This document shows, in pieces, positions 6,830 through 58,528 of a stretch of DNA of 64,000 nt. The stretch spans positions 3,104-67,103 of the forward strand of contig RHAI01000001.1 of NCBI GenBank assembly GCA_010028705.1, in the 5' to 3' direction. Source of the DNA: a bacterium (GTDB lineage Bacteria; Margulisbacteria; Marinamargulisbacteria; SXXA01). The first letter of the stretch is position 1. Each line of letters opens with the position of its first letter. Under the pieces are notes generated by a model. It did no database searches and was not told where the DNA came from. It was given only the letters and a program-made list of their open reading frames with translations. Made by a program: the position numbers and the translations under genes.

Positions 6830-7738
6830 ATGATTTCGATGAGTCAAGTGGAATATATACTCGCGGTGGCACGTACCGGGCATTTCGGGAAAGCGGCTCG
6901 GGAATGCCATATCAGCCAACCGTCCTTGTCCTCGCAAATTCAAAAAGCCGAGATCCATTTCGGTGTGACCCTATTCGATCGGAGTACAAAGCCTGTGACC
7001 GTCACGGAAGCCGGGCAACCCATTATCGACCATGCCATGGTGTTGATGGACGACTATCAGCAATTTGTCACTGCCACGGCCCGGCAAACGCCATTAAGTG
7101 GGACGTTTCACCTGGGCACCATTCCTACAATTGCGCCGTACTTATTACCGATGATTCTGCCCACCTTTTCTAAGACATATCCACACATTCAACTCACCGT
7201 ATCGATTGAGAAGACGCACACTCTCCTTGAGATGATGGATAGCCATCGTCTCGATGCCGCCATCCTAGCGACCGAACACGATGACCATCGACTGCACCAG
7301 GATCCCGTCGGATCCGATCCATTTTGGGTTGTAAGCTCAGACCCGGACATTTTGAGCCATTCGACCGTGACCCCGGATCTCCTCCACACCGTACCGCTGT
7401 GGCTATTAGACGACGGGCATTGTTTTCGGGACCAAGTGATCGACATGTGCCACCTCGATATCGGCCAACAGGGACTGCCTAATGTTCAATTTCGAGGTGG
7501 TAGCCTGGAAACCTTGATGCATTTAATCCAAAACGGTATCGGAACCACGTTAATTCCCGAAATGGCCATTCGATTTCTGCCAGCCAATACCCAGACCGCC
7601 ATCCGTCCGTTGGCCGCCCCCACCCCCGCTCGCACCATTCGTATCTCCCGGCGCAGCAAAAATCCCAAACGGTCGATTGCAGCGATTTTTCACACCCTGT
7701 GTCATGACGCGATGACGGCACCGCATGGGATGGGATAA
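6830..7738 (+). CDS. oxyR: LysR-family hydrogen-peroxide sensor/regulator OxyR
   Basis: A 302 aa ORF with an N-terminal LysR HTH (VEYILAVARTGHFGKAARECHISQPSLSSQIQKAE). It has a redox Cys pair spaced like OxyR C199/C208 (GHCFRDQVIDMCH). It is divergent from ahpCF. Confidence 0.8.
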   Translation: MISMSQVEYILAVARTGHFGKAARECHISQPSLSSQIQKAEIHFGVTLFDRSTKPVTVTEAGQPIIDHAMVLMDDYQQFVTATARQTPLSGTFHLGTIPTIAPYLLPMILPTFSKTYPHIQLTVSIEKTHTLLEMMDSHRLDAAILATEHDDHRLHQDPVGSDPFWVVSSDPDILSHSTVTPDLLHTVPLWLLDDGHCFRDQVIDMCHLDIGQQGLPNVQFRGGSLETLMHLIQNGIGTTLIPEMAIRFLPANTQTAIRPLAAPTPARTIRISRRSKNPKRSIAAIFHTLCHDAMTAPHGMG

Positions 7739-28034: not shown

Positions 28035-30649
28035 GGCTGCGTGGCCTTGATCTGAATCTGGATGGAGTCCAGCTCTGCAAGGAGTGCGGCATGCTGATCT
28101 CGAAGTTTATCGACCACGTGTGGCGGCGCTTTCTCAACAAAATTAGGGCGCCCCAGCGTCGCCTCTGTGACGCTAAGTTCCGCCTGAATTCGGTTCTTTT
28201 TCTTGGTCAGTCGGGCGAGTTCTTGGTCAAGGTCAATGAGGCCGGCCAAGGGGACATATAATTGGATGTCGTCAACTACTCCCGCCGCAGACTGGGACGG
28301 CGGCGCATCACGACTCATTTCCGTGTGCCAGTCCGATACCCGCGCCAACTTGCGGATATATTGGAGCGACTGGGACACAATATCACGATCGGCTGCCGAC
28401 GGGATCACCGCAATAACCGATATGTCTTTTCCAGGGGAAATCGATAACTGCTGTCGAATATTTCGGAGCTCGCGAATAATCGAAATCCAACGGTTCGTTT
28501 GGGAATCGAGTTCGGAATCGGTGGCTCCCAGTGTCGGCCATTGCGCCGTGATGAGCATTGACGACTCCATCCCGACAATCTTCTGAGTGGCCACGAGAGT
28601 CTGCCAAATTTCTTCGGTAATAAACGGCATGTAGGGATGGAGTACTTTGAGTGAGCCCAACAGGACATAGATCAAGGTCGGCATCGATTCCGCCTTATGA
28701 ATTTTACTCAGCTCTAAATACCAGTCGCAGTACGTATTCCAAATAAATTCCCACAACAGGTCCGCACCGCGTGCAAAATTAGTCGTTGATGTGCACTGCT
28801 CCAAGTCACGGATTAATCCGTTAAACTGGCTCAGTATCCAACGATCCGCCAGAGTCGTCGGGGTTGGAACCTTATAATCGATCGGGGCCTCCATCGCATC
28901 CAATCCCATGATCACAAATCGCGACGCATTCCACACCTTGTTCGCAAAATTCCGACTCGATTCAACCTTTTCTTTACTGTACTTAATATCCTGTCCACCC
29001 AATGTCGCTAAGGATGCCAAGCTGAATCGAAGCGCATCGGCCCCAAATTCCTTCACTAAATCCAAGGGATCGACCGCATTACCAAATGATTTGCTCATTT
29101 TTTTGCCGGTGATATCCCGGACCAATCCGTGGACATATACCTTGCCAAATGGGGACTTTCCGGTGAGGGCCAAGCCCATCGTGATCATTCGTGACACCCA
29201 AAAGGTCAAAATATCATACCCCGTAACTAACATTGTGTTTGGATAGAATCGAGATAGATCAGGGGTATCATCCGGCCAGCCAAACGTCGAAAAGGGCCAT
29301 AGAGCTGACGAAAACCAGGTATCTAACACGTCGGGATCTTGAAAATAGGAATGCCCGTCCGTTGGCGGCGATACCGACACAACAAAATAATCGGGATTAT
29401 TGCGTCGGTACCATACTGGAATCCGATGTCCCCACCAAATCTGTCGGGAAATACACCAATCGCGAATGTTTTCCATCCAGTCGAAATATAATTTTGAAAA
29501 TCGCGGGGGGACAAATTCGATCTCCCCAGTTTTGACAGCGTCAATGGCGGGCGCGGCGAGGGATTTCATATTGACGAACCATTGACGGGACAAATATGGC
29601 TCAACAATCGTCTTACATCGATAGCACGTCCCACGGGATAACGCATGATCCGTGACGGAGACTAACCAACCCGCCGCCGATAAATCCTCGATCAGTTTTT
29701 CCCGACAATCAAATCGATCCAATCCCCGATACTGTGGGGGGACCGCCGTGTTCATGACACCCGTTTCAGTCATGATCAGCAACGGTTCCAACTGATGGCG
29801 TTGACCCATTTCATAATCGTTTAGGTCATGCGCGGGGGTTACCTTTACAGCGCCTGTACCAAATGTAGGATCAATGGCGGCATCCGCGATAATGGGAATC
29901 CGACGACCCGTAAACGGCACCTCGACCGTCTGTCCGATGAATTGAGTGTAACGACTATCATCCGGATGGACGGCCACAGCGACGTCGCCCAACAGTGTTT
30001 CGGGCCGAGTGGTTGCCACAACGATGCCATGAGGCTCACCGTCAGAAAAGGGATACAAAATATTCCAAAGGTGCCCATCCGCGGGTTCATGATTGACCTC
30101 GATATCGGAGAGAGCTGTGGTGCAGCGCGGGCACCAATTAATGATGTAGGCCCCCCGATAAATGTGCCCCTGATTGTAGAGGGTTACAAACGTATGCGCG
30201 ACCGCCGCCGCGCACCCTGAATCCATGGTAAATCGTTCACGACTCCAGTCCACCGAGATCCCCATACGGCGCATTTGGTTAGTGATGGTATGTCCATATT
30301 CATGCTTCCAATCCCATACCTTTTTAACAAATGCCTCCCTCGAAAATGAGTGTCGGGACTGTCCCAGGCTGGCCATAGTCTTTTCAACGACGTTTTGGGT
30401 GGCAATTCCAGCGTGATCCGTTCCTGGAAGCCACTCAACGGCATGCCCCTGCATTCGTTTTTGACGACATACGATATCGATCAAGGTGTGTTCCAGAGCG
30501 TGTCCAATGTGCAAGGTACCAGTGACATTGGGGGGCGGAATAACGATCGAAAAAACATTGGCCGATTCGGTTGGCTCAAAGACGCCAGATTCTTCCCATG
30601 CAGAATAAATACGAGATTCAATTGATTTTGGTGAATAAGTGATGTCCAT
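28028..30649 (-). CDS. valS: Valine--tRNA ligase
   Basis: An 873 aa ORF with the HIGH-type motif (PPPNVTGTLHIGHAL), KMSKS and a C-terminal coiled coil. Confidence 0.9.
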   Translation of the reverse strand: MDITYSPKSIESRIYSAWEESGVFEPTESANVFSIVIPPPNVTGTLHIGHALEHTLIDIVCRQKRMQGHAVEWLPGTDHAGIATQNVVEKTMASLGQSRHSFSREAFVKKVWDWKHEYGHTITNQMRRMGISVDWSRERFTMDSGCAAAVAHTFVTLYNQGHIYRGAYIINWCPRCTTALSDIEVNHEPADGHLWNILYPFSDGEPHGIVVATTRPETLLGDVAVAVHPDDSRYTQFIGQTVEVPFTGRRIPIIADAAIDPTFGTGAVKVTPAHDLNDYEMGQRHQLEPLLIMTETGVMNTAVPPQYRGLDRFDCREKLIEDLSAAGWLVSVTDHALSRGTCYRCKTIVEPYLSRQWFVNMKSLAAPAIDAVKTGEIEFVPPRFSKLYFDWMENIRDWCISRQIWWGHRIPVWYRRNNPDYFVVSVSPPTDGHSYFQDPDVLDTWFSSALWPFSTFGWPDDTPDLSRFYPNTMLVTGYDILTFWVSRMITMGLALTGKSPFGKVYVHGLVRDITGKKMSKSFGNAVDPLDLVKEFGADALRFSLASLATLGGQDIKYSKEKVESSRNFANKVWNASRFVIMGLDAMEAPIDYKVPTPTTLADRWILSQFNGLIRDLEQCTSTTNFARGADLLWEFIWNTYCDWYLELSKIHKAESMPTLIYVLLGSLKVLHPYMPFITEEIWQTLVATQKIVGMESSMLITAQWPTLGATDSELDSQTNRWISIIRELRNIRQQLSISPGKDISVIAVIPSAADRDIVSQSLQYIRKLARVSDWHTEMSRDAPPSQSAAGVVDDIQLYVPLAGLIDLDQELARLTKKKNRIQAELSVTEATLGRPNFVEKAPPHVVDKLRDQHAALLAELDSIQIQIKATQPC

Positions 30650-32367: not shown

Positions 32368-34122
32368 ATGAAATTAGCATCGGGCATGCTGATGTGGAGC
32401 GCCATTATTTACACTCAGATGCGCCCAAGTCAGACTCTACCGATCGGGCACCCGAACAATGCCCCACTCCGCCCCATCCAATCGGACGATTCACTTCCAA
32501 CGCGGCGATTGGCCACAACGACCCTCGATGCACCGTCGGGGACCGCCCACTCGATCGATGAACTCAGTCGGACCCTGTTAGAAATCGTCGATATTGGGGT
32601 TCCATTAACCACCCCAATGTGGGGGGGATGGACCCCCGGAACCCAGGCGGCTGTCGACGGGGACATCCAGCAACTCCACCGCCTAAATCGGCTCGACCCC
32701 GCATCACTCAAGGAATCCGATGTGGAGGGATGGACCCCCGCCACTCGCGCGGCGTCTGTCGGGCAGGTTGAATCGATAATGGCTCTCTTTGAGATTGACC
32801 CACTATTGCTTCGGCAGGTGGATAATTTTCTAGCGACGCCCGCCACACGGGCCGCACATTATGGCCAGACAACCATTTTAGAGACATTGCATCGATTGGA
32901 TCCCGAGTTATTATCGCAAATCGACGCCGGAGGTTGGACTCCCGCCACACGAGCCGTCTTCGACAAGCAGCATGGTGTATTAGAAACGCTATTCCGTTTG
33001 AACCGGACGATATTAACACAACCAAACGGCAAAGGGTGGACTCCCGCCACCTTAGCGGTAGCGTTTGATAAAGGAGATATTGTTAACACATTGTATCGAC
33101 TCGACCCCCAAGCGGTGACGTGTAGCGACGCCAATGGATGGACTCCCGCGATGTGGGCGGCCAACGACGGCAAAGTTGCCGGACTGCGACGACTTCATTC
33201 GCTGCACCCCGAAACCATTACTCGGCCAGATTCCTATGGTCGAACCACGGCAACCCGGGCCGCCGCCAATGGGCATTCCCACGTACTTCAGCTACTTTTC
33301 GAACTCGCACCTGAGATAGTTCGACATCCCGACGTGACCGGTTGGTCCGTCGGGACCATCGCGATACGCCACAACCAAGGCGAGATACTCCAGACACTCC
33401 ACGCCCTAGATCCACGCTTATTATCCCAACCCGATGGCCATCAATTCACGCCACTCACGTTTGCAATTCACGAAAAAAAAATGGAAATGATTACTACCCT
33501 CTACCAGATTAACCCGTCACTGATTGATACGCTAACCCCCGACGGATTGACACCCGTGTCCTTCGATTCACTGCTGGAGTTAATGAACACGACCCATCGA
33601 GGTTGGGGTATCGATCCATGGCTGGCGATATCGCCACTCCTATTAATTAGTCAGGTTACGGTTGGAGTTCTGTCACTGATTTTCATCATCCAGCGTCTCG
33701 GCCGAGGGGGAATCCCAAACGATGCTCAGACGAATCTGTCCTCCGAACCAATCGGCAACGAGTTAGTCGCGGATCAAAGTCATCAGCTGATGACCCAACT
33801 TGCCGAACTTTCGGATAAGGAGTCACTTAATGTCGGCCACGGAATGGTCGCCCGTCGAAACGGAAGCCTCTATGAACTCGACGATGCCACGGGCACCTAT
33901 CAACCCGTAGCGTGCCTTATCTCGCACGACGAACTCACGCTACACACCGCGGTCTTAATTCATCGACCAACGCATCCCAATCACCGGCTCCATCTCGTGA
34001 CGGCCGAAAATCCGTATCAATTTGCTAAGTGTGCGCTCTGTAAGGAACCCACGGCAACTGAGAACTGGCTCCATTACTATTGGGCCACCCGGATCCAAAA
34101 TTCGATTGCCGCGCCCGACTAA
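32368..34122 (+). CDS. Membrane protein with ~10 tandem 34-residue ankyrin-like 'GWTPATxAA' repeats, one TM helix and a conserved Cys/His C-terminal domain (paralog A)
   Basis: A 584 aa ORF. The repeats follow DxxGWTPATRAAxxGxxxxLxxLxxLDPxLLxQxD. A TM helix (ISPLLLISQVTVGVLSLIFII) is followed by a C-terminal domain with HGMVARRNGSLY and CALCKEPTATENWLHYYWATR. This domain is shared with the gene at 37891. Confidence 0.6.
   Translation: MKLASGMLMWSAIIYTQMRPSQTLPIGHPNNAPLRPIQSDDSLPTRRLATTTLDAPSGTAHSIDELSRTLLEIVDIGVPLTTPMWGGWTPGTQAAVDGDIQQLHRLNRLDPASLKESDVEGWTPATRAASVGQVESIMALFEIDPLLLRQVDNFLATPATRAAHYGQTTILETLHRLDPELLSQIDAGGWTPATRAVFDKQHGVLETLFRLNRTILTQPNGKGWTPATLAVAFDKGDIVNTLYRLDPQAVTCSDANGWTPAMWAANDGKVAGLRRLHSLHPETITRPDSYGRTTATRAAANGHSHVLQLLFELAPEIVRHPDVTGWSVGTIAIRHNQGEILQTLHALDPRLLSQPDGHQFTPLTFAIHEKKMEMITTLYQINPSLIDTLTPDGLTPVSFDSLLELMNTTHRGWGIDPWLAISPLLLISQVTVGVLSLIFIIQRLGRGGIPNDAQTNLSSEPIGNELVADQSHQLMTQLAELSDKESLNVGHGMVARRNGSLYELDDATGTYQPVACLISHDELTLHTAVLIHRPTHPNHRLHLVTAENPYQFAKCALCKEPTATENWLHYYWATRIQNSIAAPD
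32650..33630 (+). repeat. In-frame tandem repeats (~102 bp period) encoding the GWTPAT ankyrin-like modules of paralog A
   Basis: The motif recurs at ggatggactcccgccac about every 102 nt. Antisense ORFs with VAGV.P peptides in the ORF track are artefacts of this periodicity. Boundaries are approximate. Confidence 0.6.
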
Positions 34123-37111: not shown

Positions 37112-37675
37112 TTACTTCGGACCCCATTTTTTTTGAATAAATCCGGCGCGACCGGACCCTACTTTGTATCGCTCATAATGGATGGGTTGTTTGCGGTAAT
37201 ACTGTTGATGATAATCTTCAGCTGGATAAAATGTCGCGGCCGGTTTAATGGTAACAACAATCGGTTTTTCAAATTTTCGACTGGCCGCCAACGCTTCTTT
37301 CGACGCAGCCGCCGCGAGACGTTGCTCAGGGCTGTGATAAAAAATGACAGGTCGATATTGAGGGCCTAAATCGGCAAACTGCCCATACTGATCCGTCGGA
37401 TCAACATTTTTCCAGTACACATCTAATAACGCGTTATAGCTTACCCTCGACGGGTCATATTCAACCTGAATTACTTCATAATGTCCGGTTCGACCGGTAC
37501 TGACTTGGTCGTATGTTGGTCGGATTACACTACCGCCCATATACCCTACCGTTGTGTTTACAACGCCTGGAATATGATCATACGGTGACTGCATACACCA
37601 AAAACATCCCCCCGCAAACGTCGCAATCAATAAGGCTTTCACGTACCCATTTAATCGGATGTTCTCGTGAAACAC
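37112..37675 (-). CDS. msrA: Peptide-methionine (S)-S-oxide reductase MsrA
   Basis: A 187 aa ORF with the MsrA active-site motif GGCFWCMQ near the N-terminus, a conserved GYxGG and recycling-Cys context. Confidence 0.85.
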   Translation of the reverse strand: MFHENIRLNGYVKALLIATFAGGCFWCMQSPYDHIPGVVNTTVGYMGGSVIRPTYDQVSTGRTGHYEVIQVEYDPSRVSYNALLDVYWKNVDPTDQYGQFADLGPQYRPVIFYHSPEQRLAAAASKEALAASRKFEKPIVVTIKPAATFYPAEDYHQQYYRKQPIHYERYKVGSGRAGFIQKKWGPK

Positions 37676-37890
37676 AATTTTAAATTCAATAACAACCGAT
37701 CAGGGGAGAACCTCGTGCCGCCCCCGATTACGACTTGTGACGTGACCGATCGCCGATCATTCCACTGCCTTGGCATTTTAATTGAAATTTTTTCGCCCAA
37801 AATTTCGATAATAATTTGAGCCGATTGAATGGAGTGGCCGAATCCCATCGCCACTAGACTTTATTCCATTCGCCCAGGAGTCTGTCCCCA

Positions 37891-40185
37891 ATGAATATAT
37901 TTAACGGCGCCAACCCGATGATTACCCAAGTAGCTTACAATACAACATCCCCCCGACGGACGGATAATTCACTCCCCGTATGCCCGATTCCTACCCCAGT
38001 TAGTCGCCATCAAGACCCCATCGCCATGGACTCATGGACACAACTCGAGCAACTTACTCGATCAAATATTCGCTGGTCACTCCCTCCGGATCAATCCGGC
38101 AATACCGCCCGGCCGATTTTTCCAACACTTGCGCCTGATTTAATAAGTCAATTAGTTAACGGCGACACAACAGCTGCCACAATGGCCGCAAAATACGGCC
38201 GATCCGATGATCTCATCAGGCTGTATCACCTCGACCCCAGAGGCTTAAATCAGACTGACAAAAAGGGATTGACTCCCGCCACAATGGCCGCCAAATCGGG
38301 CCAATCAGATGTACTTAAAACAATTCATCTACTTGACCCTAAATTGCTCACCCAATTTGATAATTACGGCCGAACTCCCGCCACAATAGCCGCCATCTCA
38401 GGACAATCAGACGTACTTAAAATGCTCTACTCAATAAATCCGAAACTACTCACCCAATTTGATAAAAACGGTTGGACTCCGGCTACATTAGCCGCCAAAT
38501 TAGGCCAATCGGAAATAGTTCTCACACTTCACCAACTCAATCCCAATTTGCTCAAACAACACAATAAGAATGGAAAAAACGCCGCGACAGAAGCCGCTTA
38601 CGAAGGAAATTTGGATGTCATACAGACGATTTCCAAAATCGACTCAAATTTGTTACGAATCTTTGACAAAAAAGGGCGGACTCCCGCCACAATGGCGGCT
38701 CAAGAAGGTCATCCAGACATCCTAATTGCACTTCATCACCTGGATCCGGATTTACTAAAACAATCGACCCAATTTGGGCATACCCCAGCAACCACGGCTG
38801 CCAGAAAAGGAAAATTAGGCATACTCAATACTCTAAACCAACTCGATAGTCGTCTGTTACATCAATACAACAAGCACGGAGATACGCCAGCAACCACGGC
38901 CGCCGGAGAAGGAAAAGCAAACGTCATCACGACCCTCCACACACTCAATCCCCAATTGATCACCCAATGTAATAAACACGGCTGGACGCCAGCCACCCTT
39001 GCTGCGAAAACAGGAAACGCCAACGTCATTAAAATCATCCACCAACTCAATCCTGAACAATTATCTCAAGTCGACAGTAACGGGCGAAACGCCGCATCAA
39101 CAGCTAGTGAGGCCGTTAGAGATGACGTATTAAATGCACTCCACACACTCAATCCCCAATTGCTCTCACAGTGGGATAATCACGGCGCAACGTCTGCGAC
39201 AAGAGCTGCCGAATTGGGGCGTTCATTCGCAATTATCACCCTGCATAAACTGAATCCAGAATACCTGACCCAATTCGACAAAAATGGCCGAACACCTGCC
39301 ACTGTCGCCGCCAAATCAAAAAAATTAGGCATCATCAAAACTCTCTACCGACTTAACAAAGACTTGCTCAACCAATCGGATGATAGCGGACATAATCCAG
39401 CCACTGTCGCCGCCAAATCAGGCCAATTAGACGTCATCTCCACTATTTACGAGCTCAATCCAGAAGTACTCATACAATCGGATCGTAGCGGCCATACACC
39501 AGCCACTATCGCCGCGACATTAGGCAACTTAGACGTCCTCATCACACTCCACAACCTCGATCCTGCGTTACTCACCCAACTCGACAACAACGGCTGGACT
39601 CCCGCCACGAAAGCCGCGTCCAAAGGCAACTTAGACGTCCTCAAAACTCTGTATCAACTGGATCCCAAACTATTGCTACAACTCTGGCTCCTGATCGGGA
39701 GCATAAGCGTTCTGGGGATCGCCACCCTCGGAGGGATTTGGTATTTATTACCGTTGGAACAACTCCACCCCAATGCACTCGGTCAAGCTATTCTTGAACC
39801 ACCTATCCCCATCATGGCGCCCCAGGTCGCCGAAGTTCCAATGATCGGACTCGAGGTGGTCACCGCCCAACGCAATCAACTGATGGCTCAACTGAGTCAA
39901 CTTGGGGAGAATGATCACCTCGATGTCGGCCATGGGATGGTCGCCCGTCGAGACGGAAGCCTTTATGATCAGAGCGAAAGTAGCATGCTTAATCTCTTAC
40001 AACGACCTGATGCTCGATACCGCGACCCTACTTCATCGACCACGGAATCTCCATCAACGCCTCCATCTTGTGACGTCAGAATATCCGTATCAATGGGCGA
40101 CGTGTGCGCTCTGTCAGGAACCCACGGCACCAGAGACCTGGCTCCATTACTATTGGGCCACTCGGAACATGGCCCCGCCAAGTGA
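37891..40185 (+). CDS. Paralog B of the GWTPAT ankyrin-like repeat membrane protein (~15 repeats); the C-terminal conserved domain is frameshifted
   Basis: A 764 aa ORF with 34-aa repeats (e.g. DKKGLTPATMAAKSGQSDVLKTIHLLDPKLLTQF), a TM helix (LWLLIGSISVLGIATLGGIWYLL) and then HGMVARRDGSLY. After that the annotated frame encodes a non-conserved tail. The conserved C-terminus CALCQEPTAPETWLHYYWATR is encoded in another frame (39902-40192). Confidence 0.55.
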   Translation: MNIFNGANPMITQVAYNTTSPRRTDNSLPVCPIPTPVSRHQDPIAMDSWTQLEQLTRSNIRWSLPPDQSGNTARPIFPTLAPDLISQLVNGDTTAATMAAKYGRSDDLIRLYHLDPRGLNQTDKKGLTPATMAAKSGQSDVLKTIHLLDPKLLTQFDNYGRTPATIAAISGQSDVLKMLYSINPKLLTQFDKNGWTPATLAAKLGQSEIVLTLHQLNPNLLKQHNKNGKNAATEAAYEGNLDVIQTISKIDSNLLRIFDKKGRTPATMAAQEGHPDILIALHHLDPDLLKQSTQFGHTPATTAARKGKLGILNTLNQLDSRLLHQYNKHGDTPATTAAGEGKANVITTLHTLNPQLITQCNKHGWTPATLAAKTGNANVIKIIHQLNPEQLSQVDSNGRNAASTASEAVRDDVLNALHTLNPQLLSQWDNHGATSATRAAELGRSFAIITLHKLNPEYLTQFDKNGRTPATVAAKSKKLGIIKTLYRLNKDLLNQSDDSGHNPATVAAKSGQLDVISTIYELNPEVLIQSDRSGHTPATIAATLGNLDVLITLHNLDPALLTQLDNNGWTPATKAASKGNLDVLKTLYQLDPKLLLQLWLLIGSISVLGIATLGGIWYLLPLEQLHPNALGQAILEPPIPIMAPQVAEVPMIGLEVVTAQRNQLMAQLSQLGENDHLDVGHGMVARRDGSLYDQSESSMLNLLQRPDARYRDPTSSTTESPSTPPSCDVRISVSMGDVCALSGTHGTRDLAPLLLGHSEHGPAK
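38180..39660 (+). repeat. In-frame tandem ~102-bp repeats encoding the ankyrin-like modules of paralog B
   Basis: Adjacent units are near-identical, e.g. ...caatcagatgtacttaaaacaattcat... / ...caatcagacgtacttaaaatgctctac..., and ctcacccaatttgataa recurs. Boundaries are approximate. Confidence 0.6.
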
Positions 40186-40192
40186 AACTTAA
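39902..40192 (+). pseudogene. Out-of-frame segment encoding the conserved C-terminal domain of paralog B (frameshift relative to 37891-40185)
   Basis: The 96-aa frame-2 ORF (...VACLISYNDLMLDTATLLHRPRNLHQRLHLVTSEYPYQWATCALCQEPTAPETWLHYYWATR...) aligns residue-for-residue with the C-terminus of the 32368 protein. A DNA alignment shows that paralog B has 20 nt fewer than paralog A just after ggaagcctttatga (~39970-39985). Confidence 0.6.
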
Positions 40193-40436
40193 ACTAGAAC
40201 GGGTCATCACGACGCCCCCCACCCGTGTGGGACAAAGGCTCACGTACCGTCACGACGTCGGCATCAGTTTCCCTTAACCTATGATTTACTGCTAAAATCC
40301 CTCCACTTTTGAAAATTAAGCCATCTCATCCTGATCGACCAGCTGATTCGGAACCACCACCGATTCCAGGTCAGCGACTCAGTCCATCCCATAGTCCTAC
40401 ACTCTTTATCCATCGAAAGGACCCCGCCCAGACCCT

Positions 40437-41753
40437 ATGATCGCATCTCTAGTTCATATTGATTCTCTGTCGATCGTCATCATGATTCTGGTGGGATTTA
40501 TCGGATCCATTGTCCTGGCGTTCGCCACACGTTACCTAAGATACGACCGGCATTACGCCCGATTTCTAGCGTCACTGAGCGGTCTACTGGTGTCTGTTAT
40601 CATCTTAAGCGTTTCCGATCATGTTGTGCTTTTTGGCATAACGTGGACACTGGTTAATGGAATACTGATTCGGCTAATGACCCATTTTCGCCAGTGGCCA
40701 CAGGCCATCGAATCGGGACGCCAGGCCGTTTATCGCTTGGGAATAGGCACGGCGGCACTATATTTGGGGCTCATCCTAGTGACACACTCGGCACACAGCG
40801 TTCGAATTTCGACCATCATCCACACGGTGCCGGTCACCCCAATGTCGACCATTGGGATCGGATGTATTGTCATTGCTGCATTGGCACAATCCGCTATTAT
40901 TCCGTTTCATAAATGGCTACTGAGCTCCCTTAATTCCCCAACCCCCGTTTCGGCACTCATGCACGCCGGAATCATTAACGGCGGGGGGGTTCTACTGACA
41001 CGATTTGGGCCGTTGGTCATTCAACATCCCACGATTCTTCATTTTTTGGTCATCATCGGGCTACTGACCGCCGCGTTTGGAACGGCATTTAAATTAGTGC
41101 AATCGGACATCAAGCGCATGTTAGCGTGTTCCACGATGGGGCAAATGGGGTTCATGATACTCCAATGTGGACTGGGATTATTTCCCGCTGCTATTTCGCA
41201 CATGGTGTGGCACGGCATGTTTAAAGCCTATTTTTTCCTGGATTCTCCGAGCGCCGCGCAGTACCCCAAACTTAGCAAGCCCGAAACCCCGCATCCGTTG
41301 TCAGCCATCGCGTCAATTGTGGGTGGTATGGCGGCGGCATCCATTGCCATGATGATACTCCATATTTCAGTGGCCCCGATCAATTCTTCGGTGGTCATCC
41401 CCATTGTTATCGGAATCGCAGGCACCCAAGGAATGATGACATTTATTCAACGAAACGGTGTATCTCTGGCCCCGATTGGGTTCGGACTAGCAGTGGTGAT
41501 GGGCGCCATGTACGGATTCAGTGTCCGGATCGTCGAAACGACGCTAAGCCCCCTTCACCTGTTGGCACCCCAACCCTTTCATTGGGTTCATGGCATGGCC
41601 GCCAGCGTATTAATTGGATTATGGGCAAGTATCGCCTTGAGCCCATTGATTACGAAACGAAAATTACCCGGGCTATACGTTTGGATACTGAACCTCAGTC
41701 AGCCTCACCCCGCCACGATTACCTCCGACAGAAACATGTACCGCTATGATTAA
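40437..41753 (+). CDS. dabB: Proton-conducting membrane transporter subunit (NuoL/MrpA-like); DabB-like partner of a DUF2309 protein
   Basis: A 438 aa polytopic membrane protein with ~12 hydrophobic helices and a NuoL-family-like core (HAGIINGGGVLLTRFGPL; MGQMGFMILQCGLG). It lies immediately upstream of a DUF2309-type gene and overlaps it by 8 nt. Confidence 0.6.
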   Translation: MIASLVHIDSLSIVIMILVGFIGSIVLAFATRYLRYDRHYARFLASLSGLLVSVIILSVSDHVVLFGITWTLVNGILIRLMTHFRQWPQAIESGRQAVYRLGIGTAALYLGLILVTHSAHSVRISTIIHTVPVTPMSTIGIGCIVIAALAQSAIIPFHKWLLSSLNSPTPVSALMHAGIINGGGVLLTRFGPLVIQHPTILHFLVIIGLLTAAFGTAFKLVQSDIKRMLACSTMGQMGFMILQCGLGLFPAAISHMVWHGMFKAYFFLDSPSAAQYPKLSKPETPHPLSAIASIVGGMAAASIAMMILHISVAPINSSVVIPIVIGIAGTQGMMTFIQRNGVSLAPIGFGLAVVMGAMYGFSVRIVETTLSPLHLLAPQPFHWVHGMAASVLIGLWASIALSPLITKRKLPGLYVWILNLSQPHPATITSDRNMYRYD

Positions 41754-43932
41754 CTCCTCGGCCACTATTCGTGATATCATCGAGGCCGCTTGGCGGCCCA
41801 TCTCACCGTTTTGGCCACTGCAATCGATTGTATCGGTCAACCCACTTCAGGGTTTGGAATATTTGCCATTTGATCAGGCCATCGTTCACGCCCAGCATTT
41901 ATGGGGAAGGACCCCATTACCTGACACGATCTCCACTGCGAATCGGATCTCGATAAAATGGTGTCAATCGCTCATGGATTTGGGCCAGGCTCGAATTGGA
42001 ATTGTATCCAAACGGCGCACACTATTTGACACCTGGAAATCACTGGCCGTATGGGATACGGAACTCACCCGACCATGCCCCACATTACGATCATGGTTAG
42101 ACAAAGATCCCGTTGATTTGATCGCGCATCACATCAATGAACTGGGGATAACCCTCGATCAGGGAGCCGAGTTACTGACACTCACGCTCACATCGCTACC
42201 GGGATGGGCATCGCATGTTCGGTATCTCGACCAATGGGCATCGGGTCACCCGACGGATATCCAAACCGATTTCCTCGCAATTCGGTTAAGTATTATTCGG
42301 GCCGTTGGTCAGGACTCCGAAATCGTGCGGTGGGTCACCACGCCGCCAGTGCCGAATCCCGATTTTATAAATTATCAGGCCATCCGCGACGCCGAATCTG
42401 ACTATATTCCATCGCTAATCCAACGCCTGGAATCGGCGATAAACCACCCATCGCCCAGTGAATCACCCGACCTACAAATGGCATTCTGTATTGATGTTCG
42501 CTCAGAACCTATTCGCCGAGCGATCGAGTCAGCGGGGCCGTATCAGACGTTTGGGATCGCCGGTTTTTTTAATATTCCGATTCAAATTTCCGACCATTTG
42601 TCACTCGAGACCCACCCGTCATGCCCAGTCATAATGCGCCCGGAATATCGCATCCACGATCGACGCCCCGCATCAACCTGGCTGGCCCATAGTTTAAAAT
42701 CATGGCATATGATTCAACGCGGAATTCGGTATTTGTATCGAACACTCAAATATACATTTTCCGCTCCCTTTGCATTAGTCGAAATAGTCGGTGGAAGTTT
42801 AGGGATCGCTATGGCGATACGAACATTATTTCCCGCCGTGGCCCACATGGCGACCCCTCAAAAAATACACGCTACCCCCCGATTGCCATCAGTATTGGAT
42901 GCATTAACAGCGATTCCGTTAGAGGATCAAATTCGCTACACCGAAGGTGCGTTGAGGACGATGGGATTAACGGACAACTTTGCCCCAATCATACTTATTT
43001 GCGGCCATGGCAGTTCGACTCAGAACAATGCCTTCGCCACAGCCCTCGATTGTGGCGCATGTGGCGGGCAACCCGGCGACCGAAATGCCCGTGTTCTTGC
43101 ACAACTCCTCAATTCCCCCGATGTACGACAGGCGCTTCATTCACGGGATATCTCGATCCCTGACAGCACATTATTTATGGCGGCACTGCACAACACAACA
43201 ACTGATCACATCTCATTATTCGACGACAGCCTCCTACCTCCAAACGGAATCCAGCAGGCTATTCTTGAACGATTTAAGTCCCATTTACCCGCCATACAAT
43301 CCATATGCGCCCATCGACGACTGACTCAACTGGGGCACCCCACCGACGTCCGCCTTGCAACACGTTTGGCGATTAAACTCAGTGTGGACTGGGCGCAAAT
43401 CAGACCGGAATGGGGGTTATCCGGAAATGCCTCTATTATTGTCGGCGATCGTGAGCTCACGCGAGATCTCGACCTTGGCGGCCGGTCATTTTTGCAGTCC
43501 TACAATTGGCACTCTGACCTCGATGGCCGCATATTAGTGAGCCTTCTGGATTCGGCTGTTGTTGTCGCCCACTGGATCAACAGTCAGTACCTTTTTTCAA
43601 CCATCAATCCAACCGCCTTTGGAAGTGGGAGTAAAGTGACCCACAACATCACAGGAAAACACAGCGTCATGCAAGGCAACGCCAGTGACATTATGACTGG
43701 ATTGCCAATGCAATCGTTATATCGGCGACCGGGAGAACCGTACCATGCGCCCGTCCGACTAACGATCGGAATTATGGCGCCCATCGATCGAGTCATCGGG
43801 TCGATAAAACAATCCCCGACGCCGCTTCAATTGATTATTAATCAATGGGCCCATTTGGTGGTGATTGATCCGATCACCCGGCGAGTCAGTCGGATTACCC
43901 ACACCGAACTATTGGCGCACTGTTCCGCCTAG
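41746..43932 (+). CDS. dabA: DUF2309-family protein, DabA-like (putative inorganic-carbon accumulation complex subunit)
   Basis: A 728 aa ORF with the motif FCIDVRSEP. A His and a Cys lie 15 residues apart (ICGHGSSTQNNAFATALDCGACGG). This matches the Cys-x-Asp ... His ... Cys beta-carbonic-anhydrase-like site described for DabA. Confidence 0.65.
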   Translation: MINSSATIRDIIEAAWRPISPFWPLQSIVSVNPLQGLEYLPFDQAIVHAQHLWGRTPLPDTISTANRISIKWCQSLMDLGQARIGIVSKRRTLFDTWKSLAVWDTELTRPCPTLRSWLDKDPVDLIAHHINELGITLDQGAELLTLTLTSLPGWASHVRYLDQWASGHPTDIQTDFLAIRLSIIRAVGQDSEIVRWVTTPPVPNPDFINYQAIRDAESDYIPSLIQRLESAINHPSPSESPDLQMAFCIDVRSEPIRRAIESAGPYQTFGIAGFFNIPIQISDHLSLETHPSCPVIMRPEYRIHDRRPASTWLAHSLKSWHMIQRGIRYLYRTLKYTFSAPFALVEIVGGSLGIAMAIRTLFPAVAHMATPQKIHATPRLPSVLDALTAIPLEDQIRYTEGALRTMGLTDNFAPIILICGHGSSTQNNAFATALDCGACGGQPGDRNARVLAQLLNSPDVRQALHSRDISIPDSTLFMAALHNTTTDHISLFDDSLLPPNGIQQAILERFKSHLPAIQSICAHRRLTQLGHPTDVRLATRLAIKLSVDWAQIRPEWGLSGNASIIVGDRELTRDLDLGGRSFLQSYNWHSDLDGRILVSLLDSAVVVAHWINSQYLFSTINPTAFGSGSKVTHNITGKHSVMQGNASDIMTGLPMQSLYRRPGEPYHAPVRLTIGIMAPIDRVIGSIKQSPTPLQLIINQWAHLVVIDPITRRVSRITHTELLAHCSA

Positions 43933-44436
43933 AGACGGAGCGACGGATACGCGAATATTTTCGGCCAATTGGGTGAGCGCCGTGATATCGCCCATTGGTC
44001 CACTCCCCGAACAAATCCACCCCTCGTATCGTTCAAACCAAAACTGTTTGCCACTGAGTTGCTGGCGCCAACTGCCATTTTCTAAATGTTCAGTCCCATG
44101 CATGGGCACCAATTTAATGTGAGCGTGATCAACCCCGGTACCCTCCATAATCAATCCAACGCGGCCCACGTCGTCAAAATAATTTTCAAGAATACCCGCG
44201 ACCGTTTTCGAGGCCAAAATAAACCGTTGGAGCACCTCATCGGGCATCTTCAACACATCGCTACCAAAATGGATTTTGGGGACAACACACGAAAATCCTT
44301 CGGTATTCGGATCGATTGCCAACCACGCCATAAAGTCGTCGTCACTCCAAAAAATTCCTGGAGTGTTTATTTTCCCAGAAATAATGTCACAAAAAATGCA
44401 TCGATTATCAGCGGTGTGCGACGGGTAATTAGCCAT
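43909..44436 (-). CDS. HIT-family (histidine triad) nucleotide hydrolase/transferase
   Basis: Start set at MANYPSHT. The longer ORF to 44532 would run through tRNA-Tyr. The protein has a Cys-rich N-terminus (CIFCDII) and the histidine triad DHAHIKLVPMH. Confidence 0.75.
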   Translation of the reverse strand: MANYPSHTADNRCIFCDIISGKINTPGIFWSDDDFMAWLAIDPNTEGFSCVVPKIHFGSDVLKMPDEVLQRFILASKTVAGILENYFDDVGRVGLIMEGTGVDHAHIKLVPMHGTEHLENGSWRQQLSGKQFWFERYEGWICSGSGPMGDITALTQLAENIRVSVAPSLGGTVRQ

Positions 44437-44446
44437 AAATAGTTGG

Positions 44447-44530
44447 TGGAGGGAGCTGGATTTGAACCAACGTAGAGCTAAGCTCGGCAGATTTACAGTC
44501 TGCTGCGATTGACCACTCCGCCATCCCTCC
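44447..44530 (-). tRNA. tRNA-Tyr (anticodon GTA), long variable arm
   Basis: The reverse complement reads GGAGGGATGGCGGAGTGGTCAATCGCAGCAGACTGTAAATCTGCCGAGCTTAGCTCTACGTTGGTTCAAATCCAGCTCCCTCCA. The anticodon loop is CTGTAAA and the T-arm is GGTTCAAATCC. Confidence 0.85.
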
Positions 44531-44621
44531 AAAGGAAAGCTTTGAAAAAGCAGAGTATTCTAGGATATAGCTTGCGAGAAACCTATGTCAAATCAAGCCC
44601 ATTCACGCAAAGCGAATTGGG

Positions 44622-55796: not shown

Positions 55797-57140
55797 ATGT
55801 TGCATGAACTTTGGGAAAAAATATTGATCAACCTCAATCAAACATTATCGGGTCCGGGATATCAAACATTCGTCTCATCATCTATTCCAAAATCATTCGA
55901 AGACAATATCTTAACCATTACTGTTGGAAATCGCTTCTCGATGGATTGGATTAAGGAAAAGTGTGAACAATCTGTTCGTGACACACTTCAACAAAACGGA
56001 TTCTACCCTGTAATCGTTATGTACGATATTGATTCTACCCCGGTCACCAATGAATCCAGTCAAATGGATTTACTTGAGGTCACCACCCCGCCCCCTGTAA
56101 TTACAAATCCAAATGGGATGTTTAATCCCAAATATAATTTTGACAACTTTATTGTCGGCCATAACAACCGCTTTGCACATGCGGCATCGGAAGCAGTCTC
56201 CAAGGCACCCGCCAAAGCGTACAACCCCCTCTTTATTTATGGGTCTGTTGGACTAGGTAAAACACATTTGCTCCACGCGATTGGCAACGAAATTCAGAAA
56301 AAACACCCAAAACTCAAACTATTTATGGTGTCATCAGAAAAATTTACGAACGAACTTATTAATTCGATCAAAGATAAAAAAGTCGAAAACTTTAGATCGA
56401 AATACCGAAACGTTGATGTGTTACTCGTCGACGATATCCAATTTTTATCTGGGAAGGAACAAACTCAGGAGGAATTTTTTCACACATTTAACGAACTTCA
56501 CAGCAACAACAAGCAAATAATATTGACCTCAGACCGACCACCAAAAGAAATTCCAACACTTGAAATTCGACTGAGAACTCGCTTTGAATGGGGATTAATC
56601 GCCGACATTCAACCTCCTGAATTTGAAACTAGAATTGCTATTCTTAGAAAAAAAATTGAGTTATATAACATTCGGATTTCCGACGAGATCCTTCATTTTA
56701 TTGCAACTCAAATTCCGACAAACGTCCGCGAAATGGAAGGATGCCTGACTAAAATTTCGGCATATGCGTCACTTCTAAATACGGAAATTACCCTTTCAAT
56801 TGCGAGTAACGTCATTCGGGATATGATTGGCATTAAAAACGATAAACCGCTCACAATCACTCACATCAAACGGAAAGTATGTGATTACTTTAACGTATCA
56901 AACGTCGATCTATGCTCCAAAGGCCGAACAAGAGAACTGACGTACGCGCGGCAAATTGCGATGTATTTAGCCAGGGAATTAACGAACGTGTCACTGCCAA
57001 AAATTGGCGAAAATTTTGGAGATCGTGACCATAGTACCGTCATGCATGCATGTGACAAAGTGAAAACGTTGTTAGTGAATGACCCTGAAACAAAAAGTAT
57101 CATCAATCTGCTAATATCAAATATCAAAAACGACGAATAA
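55797..57140 (+). CDS. dnaA: Chromosomal replication initiator protein DnaA
   Basis: A 447 aa ORF with the AAA+ Walker A GSVGLGKTHLLHAIGNE, Walker B LLVDDIQF and a C-terminal DnaA-box-binding HTH (...YARQIAMYLARELTNVSLPKIGENFGDRDHSTVMHA). Confidence 0.95.
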   Translation: MLHELWEKILINLNQTLSGPGYQTFVSSSIPKSFEDNILTITVGNRFSMDWIKEKCEQSVRDTLQQNGFYPVIVMYDIDSTPVTNESSQMDLLEVTTPPPVITNPNGMFNPKYNFDNFIVGHNNRFAHAASEAVSKAPAKAYNPLFIYGSVGLGKTHLLHAIGNEIQKKHPKLKLFMVSSEKFTNELINSIKDKKVENFRSKYRNVDVLLVDDIQFLSGKEQTQEEFFHTFNELHSNNKQIILTSDRPPKEIPTLEIRLRTRFEWGLIADIQPPEFETRIAILRKKIELYNIRISDEILHFIATQIPTNVREMEGCLTKISAYASLLNTEITLSIASNVIRDMIGIKNDKPLTITHIKRKVCDYFNVSNVDLCSKGRTRELTYARQIAMYLARELTNVSLPKIGENFGDRDHSTVMHACDKVKTLLVNDPETKSIINLLISNIKNDE

Positions 57141-57147
57141 TGATTCC

Positions 57148-57355
57148 GTTGATAACGCTGCGTATAACTACCTAACTTTTTGTTGATAACTGTTGATAAC
57201 AGTATGGTTATTATTTTTTTCCGCATTTTTATCTACAGTCCAATTTACTATTTTTAATTGAATAACCAAATAAAATAGACTTTATTAACATATTAACAGG
57301 TCCCTACTAGATACTAAATTTAAAATAAATATATTAATCTTTATAAAAGCTATTA
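57148..57355. promoter_or_regulatory. Candidate oriC: DnaA-box cluster plus an AT-rich DNA-unwinding element between dnaA and dnaN
   Basis: Four DnaA-box-like 9-mers lie within 57148-57200 (cgTTGATAA, TGcGTATAA, TGTtGATAA x2; 1-2 mismatches to TGTGNATAA). A ~125-nt stretch that is mostly A/T follows at 57230-57355, just before dnaN. Confidence 0.55.
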
Positions 57356-57385
57356 ATGAATCATCAAGAATTAAGCCGAGGAAAC

Positions 57386-58528
57386 GCCATGCAATTTTCA
57401 TGTTCTGCATCTCAGTTACAAAAAGCCGTCGGAATCGTAGAGCGAGCTATTTCTCAACGGACTACACTGGCCGTTTTGGAGAATCTTTATTTAGAGCTCA
57501 GTGGAAATCGATTAAAACTTCGAGGTAACGACCTAGAAATTGGAATCGAAACTAGCCTGTTCGTTGAGTCTGCTGGGGTGGATGGTTCGGTGTTAGTTCG
57601 GGCGAAGACTTTTAGTAGTATTCTGTCTAAAATTCAGGCCGACACCCTGAATGTTCGAGTCGATGTGAACTCAAAAATTGTGATAGTTGCGAATAAGGTT
57701 GATTTCGAAATTTTGTGTACCCCGGTTGAAGATTATCCGATTTTCCCCGCCGTGGAGTCTGGTATTTCATTCACTATGTCGGCGTCCGTGATACAGGATT
57801 TGATTCGGCATACAATTTTTGCCGTTAGCTTTGATGAAACAAAGCAGTTTCTGAATGGGATTTTCGTCAAAGTTGAGAGTGGCAGCATCAATTTCGTTGC
57901 GACGGATGGCTATCGCTTGGCGTTAAAACGTCATACTCTCGACCAAAGCAGCGTCGGGGATTTTTCATTAATCGTTCCTCATAAAGCAGTCAATGAATTA
58001 CTTAAAATTTTGGGCACTTTGGGGGATGACGCGCCAATTAAATTAAATGTTTCTGAGTCTCAAATTGCCTTTGAGTCCGAACGGTTTTTATTAGTGTCGC
58101 GTGTAATTAAGGGGCAATTTCCCGATTACCGGCAAGTGATGCCAAAACACTCTGATAATTTATTTTCAGTGTCTCGGCATTCACTGTTAAACGCGTGTGA
58201 TCGAGCCACGATTATTGCCGCAACCTCAAATAATGTTGTTCGATTAAATTTCAGCGAAACCAGCGTATTGATCAAAGCTAACGCCGCGAGTTTAGGTGAC
58301 TTTAAAGAAGAAATTGATGTTTCGCGGTTGAGTGGTGCGGGTGAAGTGAAAATCGCATTTAACGTTAAACTGGTATTAGATGGGATTCGCGGAATTAGCT
58401 CGGATGATATTCGATTGGAATTCAATCAGGGAGTCTCGCCGTGCGTGGTTCGTTCGGCGGCGGATGAGGATTATGTATACATTGTGATGCCGATACGTAC
58501 AAATGACTTTCAGGAGGAAACTGCCTAG
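57386..58528 (+). CDS. dnaN: DNA polymerase III beta sliding clamp
   Basis: Start set at MQFSCSASQLQKAV, which aligns with the MKFT... N-terminus of DnaN homologs. The ORF track starts 10 codons earlier. The three-domain clamp length is ~380 aa. Confidence 0.9.
   Translation, partial: AMQFSCSASQLQKAVGIVERAISQRTTLAVLENLYLELSGNRLKLRGNDLEIGIETSLFVESAGVDGSVLVRAKTFSSILSKIQADTLNVRVDVNSKIVIVANKVDFEILCTPVEDYPIFPAVESGISFTMSASVIQDLIRHTIFAVSFDETKQFLNGIFVKVESGSINFVATDGYRLALKRHTLDQSSVGDFSLIVPHKAVNELLKILGTLGDDAPIKLNVSESQIAFESERFLLVSRVIKGQFPDYRQVMPKHSDNLFSVSRHSLLNACDRATIIAATSNNVVRLNFSETSVLIKANAASLGDFKEEIDVSRLSGAGEVKIAFNVKLVLDGIRGISSDDIRLEFNQGVSPCVVRSAADEDYVYIVMPIRTNDFQEETA

Follow-up and report, generated by a model that had tools for sequence, protein, structure and literature searches.

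Frameshift-truncated alleles of ankyrin-repeat effector genes are well documented in Coxiella burnetii, in which nine alleles of ankG have been distinguished and small frameshifting indels separate the truncated copies of some strains from the full-length copies of others (PMC7506536; Voth et al. 2009, as cited there). Local assembly errors without support from any single read have in turn been described in metagenome-assembled genomes (MAGs), with 13 such errors in one MAG of 1.13 Mb, one of them in the gene for a repeat-containing protein (Chen et al. 2020, Genome Res, PMC7111523). The locus analyzed here shares features with both, as well as with prfB-type +1 ribosomal frameshifting, through overlapping frames and a conserved downstream part in the +1 frame, and with phase-variable contingency genes, in which an indel toggles the frame of a surface or host-interaction type of gene in a variable family. 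It lies in a stretch of 64,000 nucleotides (nt; hereafter, the window, to which all coordinates refer unless another contig is named) from a bacterium of the Marinamargulisbacteria lineage SXXA01 (assembly GCA_010028705.1, contig RHAI01000001.1, positions 3,104 to 67,103 of the forward strand), where one of two paralogous ankyrin-repeat genes, paralog B, lacks 20 nt and the conserved C-terminal domain is out of frame with the rest of the gene. We attribute this gap, with some hesitation, to a local error of assembly or consensus.

Paralog A (32368-34122, plus strand) is an intact open reading frame (ORF) of 584 amino acids (aa), deposited as GenBank NDC82063.1, with ankyrin repeats, a hydrophobic segment at aa 423-441 and a Cys/His C-terminal domain; it is highly conserved, its copies being identical or 98% identical in 4 assemblies. 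The frame-1 ORF of paralog B (37891-40185, plus strand; 764 aa) shares the ankyrin repeats, the hydrophobic segment and the conserved part as far as ...GSLYDQSE, and then continues into a non-homologous tail of 69 aa that contains DQSESSMLNLLQRPDAR. Alignment of the A and B DNA revealed a single 20-nt gap in B, and alignments with two other assemblies of the same species, L002 and L006, place it at 39978-39979 (GAGCGAA|AGTAGC, not assigned to a strand), where CCCACTGGCATATTTCAACC is absent. When the last 130 residues of A were compared with B using tblastn, the match ran in frame 1 to 39969 and then in frame 2 over 39980-40165, two consecutive segments with 69% identity and a joint E value of 2e-33. 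The Cys/His C-terminal domain of B (VACLIS...CALCQEP...WLHYYWATR; 39980-40192, plus strand) now stands in frame 2, within the ORF 39902-40192.

The tblastn search and the DNA alignment bear out most of what a sequence-only reading of this DNA had described, namely two paralogs, a difference of 20 nt and a conserved domain open in frame 2 (39902-40192) that ends 7 nt past the annotated stop, B having its stop at 40183-40185 in frame 1 and at 40190-40192 in frame 2. Its further statement that the two genes realign base for base downstream is right in that homology resumes, but A and B are only ~79% identical 3' of the junction, and an additional in-frame gap of 9 nt lies near the stop. Frame 2 of B remains open for 70 codons past the junction (chance ~0.05 from base composition), and the shifted domain has all 17 invariant domain positions. 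Relaxed constraint 3' of the lesion was not observed in B, in which these 70 codons are open and these 17 positions are kept. The states specific to the window in the domain of B (LVT, PYQ) are those of paralog A.

In L002 (ENA ERZ3460577 NODE_809, 71.6 kb, with an overall identity to the window of 99.35%), the ortholog of B is one unbroken ORF of 773 codons that holds, at the junction of the window, exactly the 20 additional bases CCCACTGGCATATTTCAACC, encoding …EPTGIFQP…. A gapped-pattern scan of the JGI metagenomes returned one contig only, L006 (Ga0214923_10010132), with the intact 20-nt form; this contig ends ~65 nt beyond the junction. The last 10 nt of L006 (1-10), ATCGAGGTGA, have no match to B and equal the reverse complement of a stretch ~120 nt upstream, which resembles a contig-end artefact. 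The metagenome scan gave the intact form only and no second assembly with the deleted junction, and a scan of viral contigs for the junction flank gave nothing. The 20-nt segment is present in every other copy of the domain, that is, in A of the window, in B of L002 and L006 and in C, a third paralog, of L002 and L006. Because every other domain copy and both other assemblies hold the 20 nt, the gap, judged from assembled sequences, is a deletion private to the window contig, and neither an insertion in A nor a conserved arrangement. Exact look-ups of the products of B in the protein collection (the 764-aa form, alternative starts, frame-2 ORFs, a hypothetical repaired B of 773 aa, B of L002) and of C of L006 gave no entry, an absence that is uninformative because even the called 773-aa product of L002 is missing there. 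For counting reads of the intact form beside those spanning 39978|39979, the string is GAGCGAACCCACTGGCATATTTCAACCAGTAGC.

Set beside its orthologous loci, as the sequence-only reading had proposed, the window copy is thus broken, with B of L002 intact in a single frame and the junction of L006 intact. This is the pattern that was to be taken as confirming a pseudogene, relatives intact and this copy not, but an assembly error fits it too, and the surroundings of the gap strengthen that explanation.

These surroundings are a tandem array. Paralog C, of 1100-1125 aa, with ~30 ankyrin repeats, a signal-peptide-like N-terminus MKLSSLIIAAVGVASTASA and the same C-terminal domain as A and B, was found in L006 (3877-7254 of the reverse complement), L002 (1-457) and a third contig, L090 (15524-16084), and is missing from the window between 37675 and 37891. 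The gene order in L006 is clpB - msrA - U - C - U - B, where U is an upstream region of ~200 bp; L006, and also L090 and L002 combined, give msrA - U - C - U - B - dabB, as against msrA - U - B in the window. Within ERZ3460577, C is divided: NODE_1772 terminates in its 5' end, and NODE_809 begins with its 3' end. Both other assemblies that cross the point between msrA and B have C, and the direct join of msrA to B was found in no other assembly. Elsewhere, U occurs as two diverged copies, one before C and one before B; alignment of the U copies and painting with 21-mers showed that U of the window (37653-37855, plus strand) is a hybrid, with C-type single-nucleotide polymorphisms (SNPs) to ~37826 and B-type sequence from ~37832, and the five 21-mers over this switch were found in no other assembly. 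Further downstream, the 20-nt loss is located within a block (39852-40214, without strand) whose 21-mers are for the most part common to B and C and, leaving aside the deletion junction and a small number of SNPs specific to the window, can be found in C of other assemblies too.

The edges of these two repeats are where other assemblies break. Contigs end inside U at 37817 (L001), 37756 (L094) and 37742 (L095). The first of these positions is where the ENA re-assembly of SAMN10254614, which differs from the window by 3 mismatches in 15.3 kb outside U and, beyond the break, by 3 in another 14 kb, stops after running from msrA into U and gaining B-type SNPs; it resumes at 40160 (= 40215 - 55). 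At the second, 30 nt past a C-specific G at 37726, ends a Logan contig of SRR7812697, and at the third a MEGAHIT contig from ERZ27275342. From SRR8075959, a Logan contig with 100% identity to the window begins at 40185 (= 40215 - 30, or k-1 for k=31). As the starts at 40160 (k=55) and 40185 (k=31) each lie one k-mer before the end of the block, the assembly graph would branch at 40214|40215. Such break points are expected of a de Bruijn graph when there are two contexts for U and two for the 3' block, and they imply that the window's own population has the C-B tandem. The window contig conflicts with independent assemblies in the manner of a mis-assembly, with no C, a hybrid U and repeat edges at which other contigs break. 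It is unreliable at this locus, C being missing and U being hybrid ~2 kb 5' of the lesion in the same gene unit.

The 3' ends of the paralogs are themselves mosaic. When C of L006 was compared with A (33900-33960) and B (39979-40040) of the window, an A-like patch of ~60 nt was seen that starts at the position of the 20-nt segment; C of L002 is B-like there. The left end of the deletion lies within 5 nt of the start of this patch. Such mosaic ends suggest gene conversion among A, B and C.

Taking this evidence together, we put at about 55% the probability that the 20 nt were lost through a local error of assembly or consensus, and B is most likely intact in the organism as the 773-codon ORF of the conspecific assembly. 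The contig would then be a shortcut through the tandem C-B array, in which paralog C was skipped by a jump between the two copies of U, and the missing 20 nt, within the block shared by B and C, would be a non-programmed sequence loss of the type described for metagenome assemblers in repeat-containing genes; the junction 39978|39979 would be backed by no read or by a minority of reads. An artefact is favored by the oddity of the contig upstream, by the position of the gap in a repeat block and by the undecayed state of the shifted domain. It is also favored by the endpoints 39978|39979, which have zero microhomology, a state atypical of spontaneous deletions, and by the size of the loss, exactly 20 nt, which equals k or k-1 for the smallest k that common metagenome assemblers use, although this match is no more than a noteworthy coincidence. 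Finally, assembly errors of this type are documented: as in the MAGs of Chen et al., the lesion is in a repeat-containing gene of a tandem-paralog locus, with structural conflict and with short-read assemblies of the same population breaking at the repeat edges, whereas those errors were defined by the absence of read support and assembled contigs alone are compared here.

Several observations weigh against an error and count instead toward a real, very recent deletion, specific to a strain or subpopulation, by which B would have become a pseudogene or a truncated allele, an alternative that we hold to be possible but tentative. De Bruijn assemblers normally require reads to make a novel junction, and a graph path able to skip the 20 nt was sought, with no shared k-mer and no concrete artefact step that could be named. 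In a comparison with five other assemblies over ~34 kb, the only further indel in the window is a paralog-specific difference of 1 nt in U. The 3' end of B in the window carries its own SNPs around the lesion, some of them common to A; it is accordingly a true allele rather than a chimera of B and C. The two other assemblies, in which the 20 nt are kept and, in L002, the ORF is intact, are equally what a private deletion would leave, and the A-like patch in C of L006 marks recombination activity at the left end of the gap, so that the gap, which borders a patch mosaic among the paralogs, could stem from gene conversion or from imprecise recombination. B is fairly fast-evolving, with a ratio of nonsynonymous to synonymous polymorphism (pN/pS) of ~0.38 against 0-0.24 in neighbouring genes, and natural strains often differ by frameshift truncations in ankyrin-repeat genes (PMC7506536). 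Like the Coxiella ankG alleles, B is a member of a multi-copy family of ankyrin-repeat genes, with one allele cut at the C-terminus by a small frameshifting indel and the gene full-length in other strains; the Coxiella cases, however, were confirmed in isolate genomes, whereas here there is one MAG contig, and AnkG is an effector, whereas nothing marks the present protein as a secreted effector. A real deletion is also at odds with the endpoints devoid of microhomology, the undecayed domain, the appearance of the deleted junction in a single assembly and the structural disagreement of the same contig with every other assembly 2 kb upstream.

Readings in which the two frames of B are a regulated or a split arrangement are, even together, improbable. 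A frameshift-regulated or phase-variable C-terminus was among the possibilities raised by the sequence-only reading; it would take the form of a programmed +1 ribosomal frameshift near 39970-39980 that restores the domain, or of a phase-variable contingency switch, and +1 is the correct direction, from frame 1 to frame 2, with both frames open over the junction. The slippery sequence that was to be looked for at the frame junction did not turn up, no X XXY YYZ heptamer occurring in 39902-40185; the junction has no homopolymer of 4 or more and no tandem repeat, the sole homopolymer of that length nearby being GGGG at 39904, and its codons, GAU CAG AGC GAA AGU AGC, include no in-frame stop and no known hungry-codon context. 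The closest Shine-Dalgarno-like sequence, GGGGAG, is ~70 nt 5' of the junction, and the ortholog in L002, paralog A and paralog C of L006 each have a single frame. The locus therefore differs from prfB-type frameshifting, having no shift-prone codon or stop context, no properly spaced Shine-Dalgarno stimulator and no conservation of the arrangement. It differs from contingency genes as well, the indel being at no simple repeat: Tandem Repeats Finder (TRF) gave only the 102-nt ankyrin periodicity at B, with no simple repeat setting the frame, and the loss of a unique 20-nt segment without repeats is irreversible by slippage and cannot act as a switch. Without a slippery site or repeat, and with L002 and L006 undeleted and B of L002 in a single frame, there is effectively no room for programmed frameshifting or phase variation, and the proposal of a frameshift-regulated or phase-variable C-terminus is unsupported, leaving the pseudogene and the assembly error. 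Just as doubtful is a split gene, in which translation from an ATG inside frame 2 (39965 or 39911) would yield the Cys/His domain alone as a small soluble protein, with frame 1 supplying the anchored ankyrin part. Frame-2 ATGs do occur at 39911, 39923, 39932 and 39965, and a weak GGAAG lies 5 nt 5' of the last, but there is no convincing ribosome-binding site for a frame-2 start, and a start there would leave the domain without its membrane tether and cut off the conserved N-terminal half (NVGHGMVARRxGSLY); such a product is also missing from the protein collection, a weak point given that members of the family seem to be generally absent there. It is, finally, unlikely that the C-B array is a natural hot spot of variation, in which recombination between the copies of U and among the 3' ends of the paralogs would yield subpopulations without C, with the B domain uncoupled, or both; in a weaker variant of this reading, the domain may still be produced through +1 shifting or internal initiation. 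A local assembly error remains the explanation that we favor for the gap.

The proteins of this family combine a variable count of 34-residue ankyrin repeats (102-nt period in TRF), one strongly hydrophobic segment and a domain of ~110 residues. In B, the hydrophobic segment is the predicted membrane-spanning stretch LLQLWLLIGSISVLGIATL (39673-39729, plus strand), the top 19-residue Kyte-Doolittle window with a score of 2.03. Both A and B gave significant matches to the Pfam repeat models Ank_2, Ank_4 and Ank_5 (Ank_2 at 9.6e-20 in A and at 1.2e-49, with 10 matched stretches, in B), and the Ank families were the only Pfam families found, with none for the C-terminal part of either protein. The invariant pattern of the domain is C-x-I-S-x3-L … H-x-P … L-H-x-V … C-x2-C-x2-P … Y-Y, and copies were located in the window at 33790-34119 and 39980-40189 and in a protein designated P0003 at residues 236-329. 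An exhaustive phmmer/HMMER search of 1.84 billion representative proteins returned A itself, P0003 as a distant relative and one spurious repeat protein; P0003 has 341 aa, is 34% identical and is encoded on a 2-kb Logan contig without useful context. The C-terminal 111 aa of A and a profile of 5 sequences found no homolog in a word-indexed database of 5.8 billion proteins, the search with full-length B of L002 gave unrelated ankyrin proteins only, and a scan of genome contigs with the domain alignment gave no relatives. Among the collections searched, the Cys/His domain is essentially an orphan.

A U-box or RING-like E3 ligase fold was considered for this domain and rejected, neither a U-box nor a RING match being obtained in Pfam at E values up to 10. 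The only Pfam hit of the domain was C1_2 at E = 0.004, under the cut-off of that family, and hhalign against a U-box alignment entered by hand gave a probability of 0.09. A profile search of the PDB with the domain produced no match, and the AlphaFold2 (AF2) model of the domain, with a predicted local distance difference test (pLDDT) value of 47, is unusable.

Other window proteins in GenBank are ClpB (NDC82064.1), MsrA (NDC82066.1), DabB (NDC82069.1), DabA (NDC82070.1), enolase (NDC82073.1) and DnaA (NDC82086.1), which, like A, are all encoded on one MAG contig of 112,020 bp. The DabB/DabA pair (a proton-conducting transporter and a DUF2309 protein) is encoded at 40437-43932, and the closest relatives of this DabA among GTDB species representatives are at most about 40% identical and come mostly from Alphaproteobacteria, Rickettsiales, Holospora and Chlamydiota MAGs. 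The replication origin is probably near dnaA, at ~58 kb, because dnaA (55797-57140) adjoins a stretch of low GC content (0.39) at about 57000-58500 and the GC skew turns from negative to positive at about 58 kb. A mechanically predicted ORF of 207 aa (43909-44532, minus strand) overlaps a tRNA gene (44447-44530, minus strand); the actual HIT-family gene at 43909-44532 is shorter, with 140-175 aa in other annotations. In the ENA scaffold L001, a run of ~20 N within valS (7201-7220) corresponds to about 29586-29588 of the window, where valS is essentially continuous and encodes an intact ValRS of 873 aa; the L001 gap is spurious, and valS is divided by it into two calls.

The finding is mainly a caution, and the lesion is of an ordinary kind: in the MAG contig, this locus is probably misrepresented, a tandem paralog being missing and a gene broken, so that counts of gene content or pseudogenes drawn from it would be wrong. 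Should the deletion prove true, B would keep its ankyrin array and membrane segment, lose the Cys/His domain and gain 69 unrelated residues; with A, and any C that is present, still intact, such a loss would be tolerated, and the locus would add one more case of allele-level decay in a redundant ankyrin-repeat family. Were the array a natural hot spot, the ankyrin arrays on display would carry the cytoplasmic domain in some cells and lack it in others, as a recombination-driven heterogeneity and not an error. The family itself, which joins ankyrin repeats and a membrane anchor to an orphan Cys/His domain, is of mild interest.

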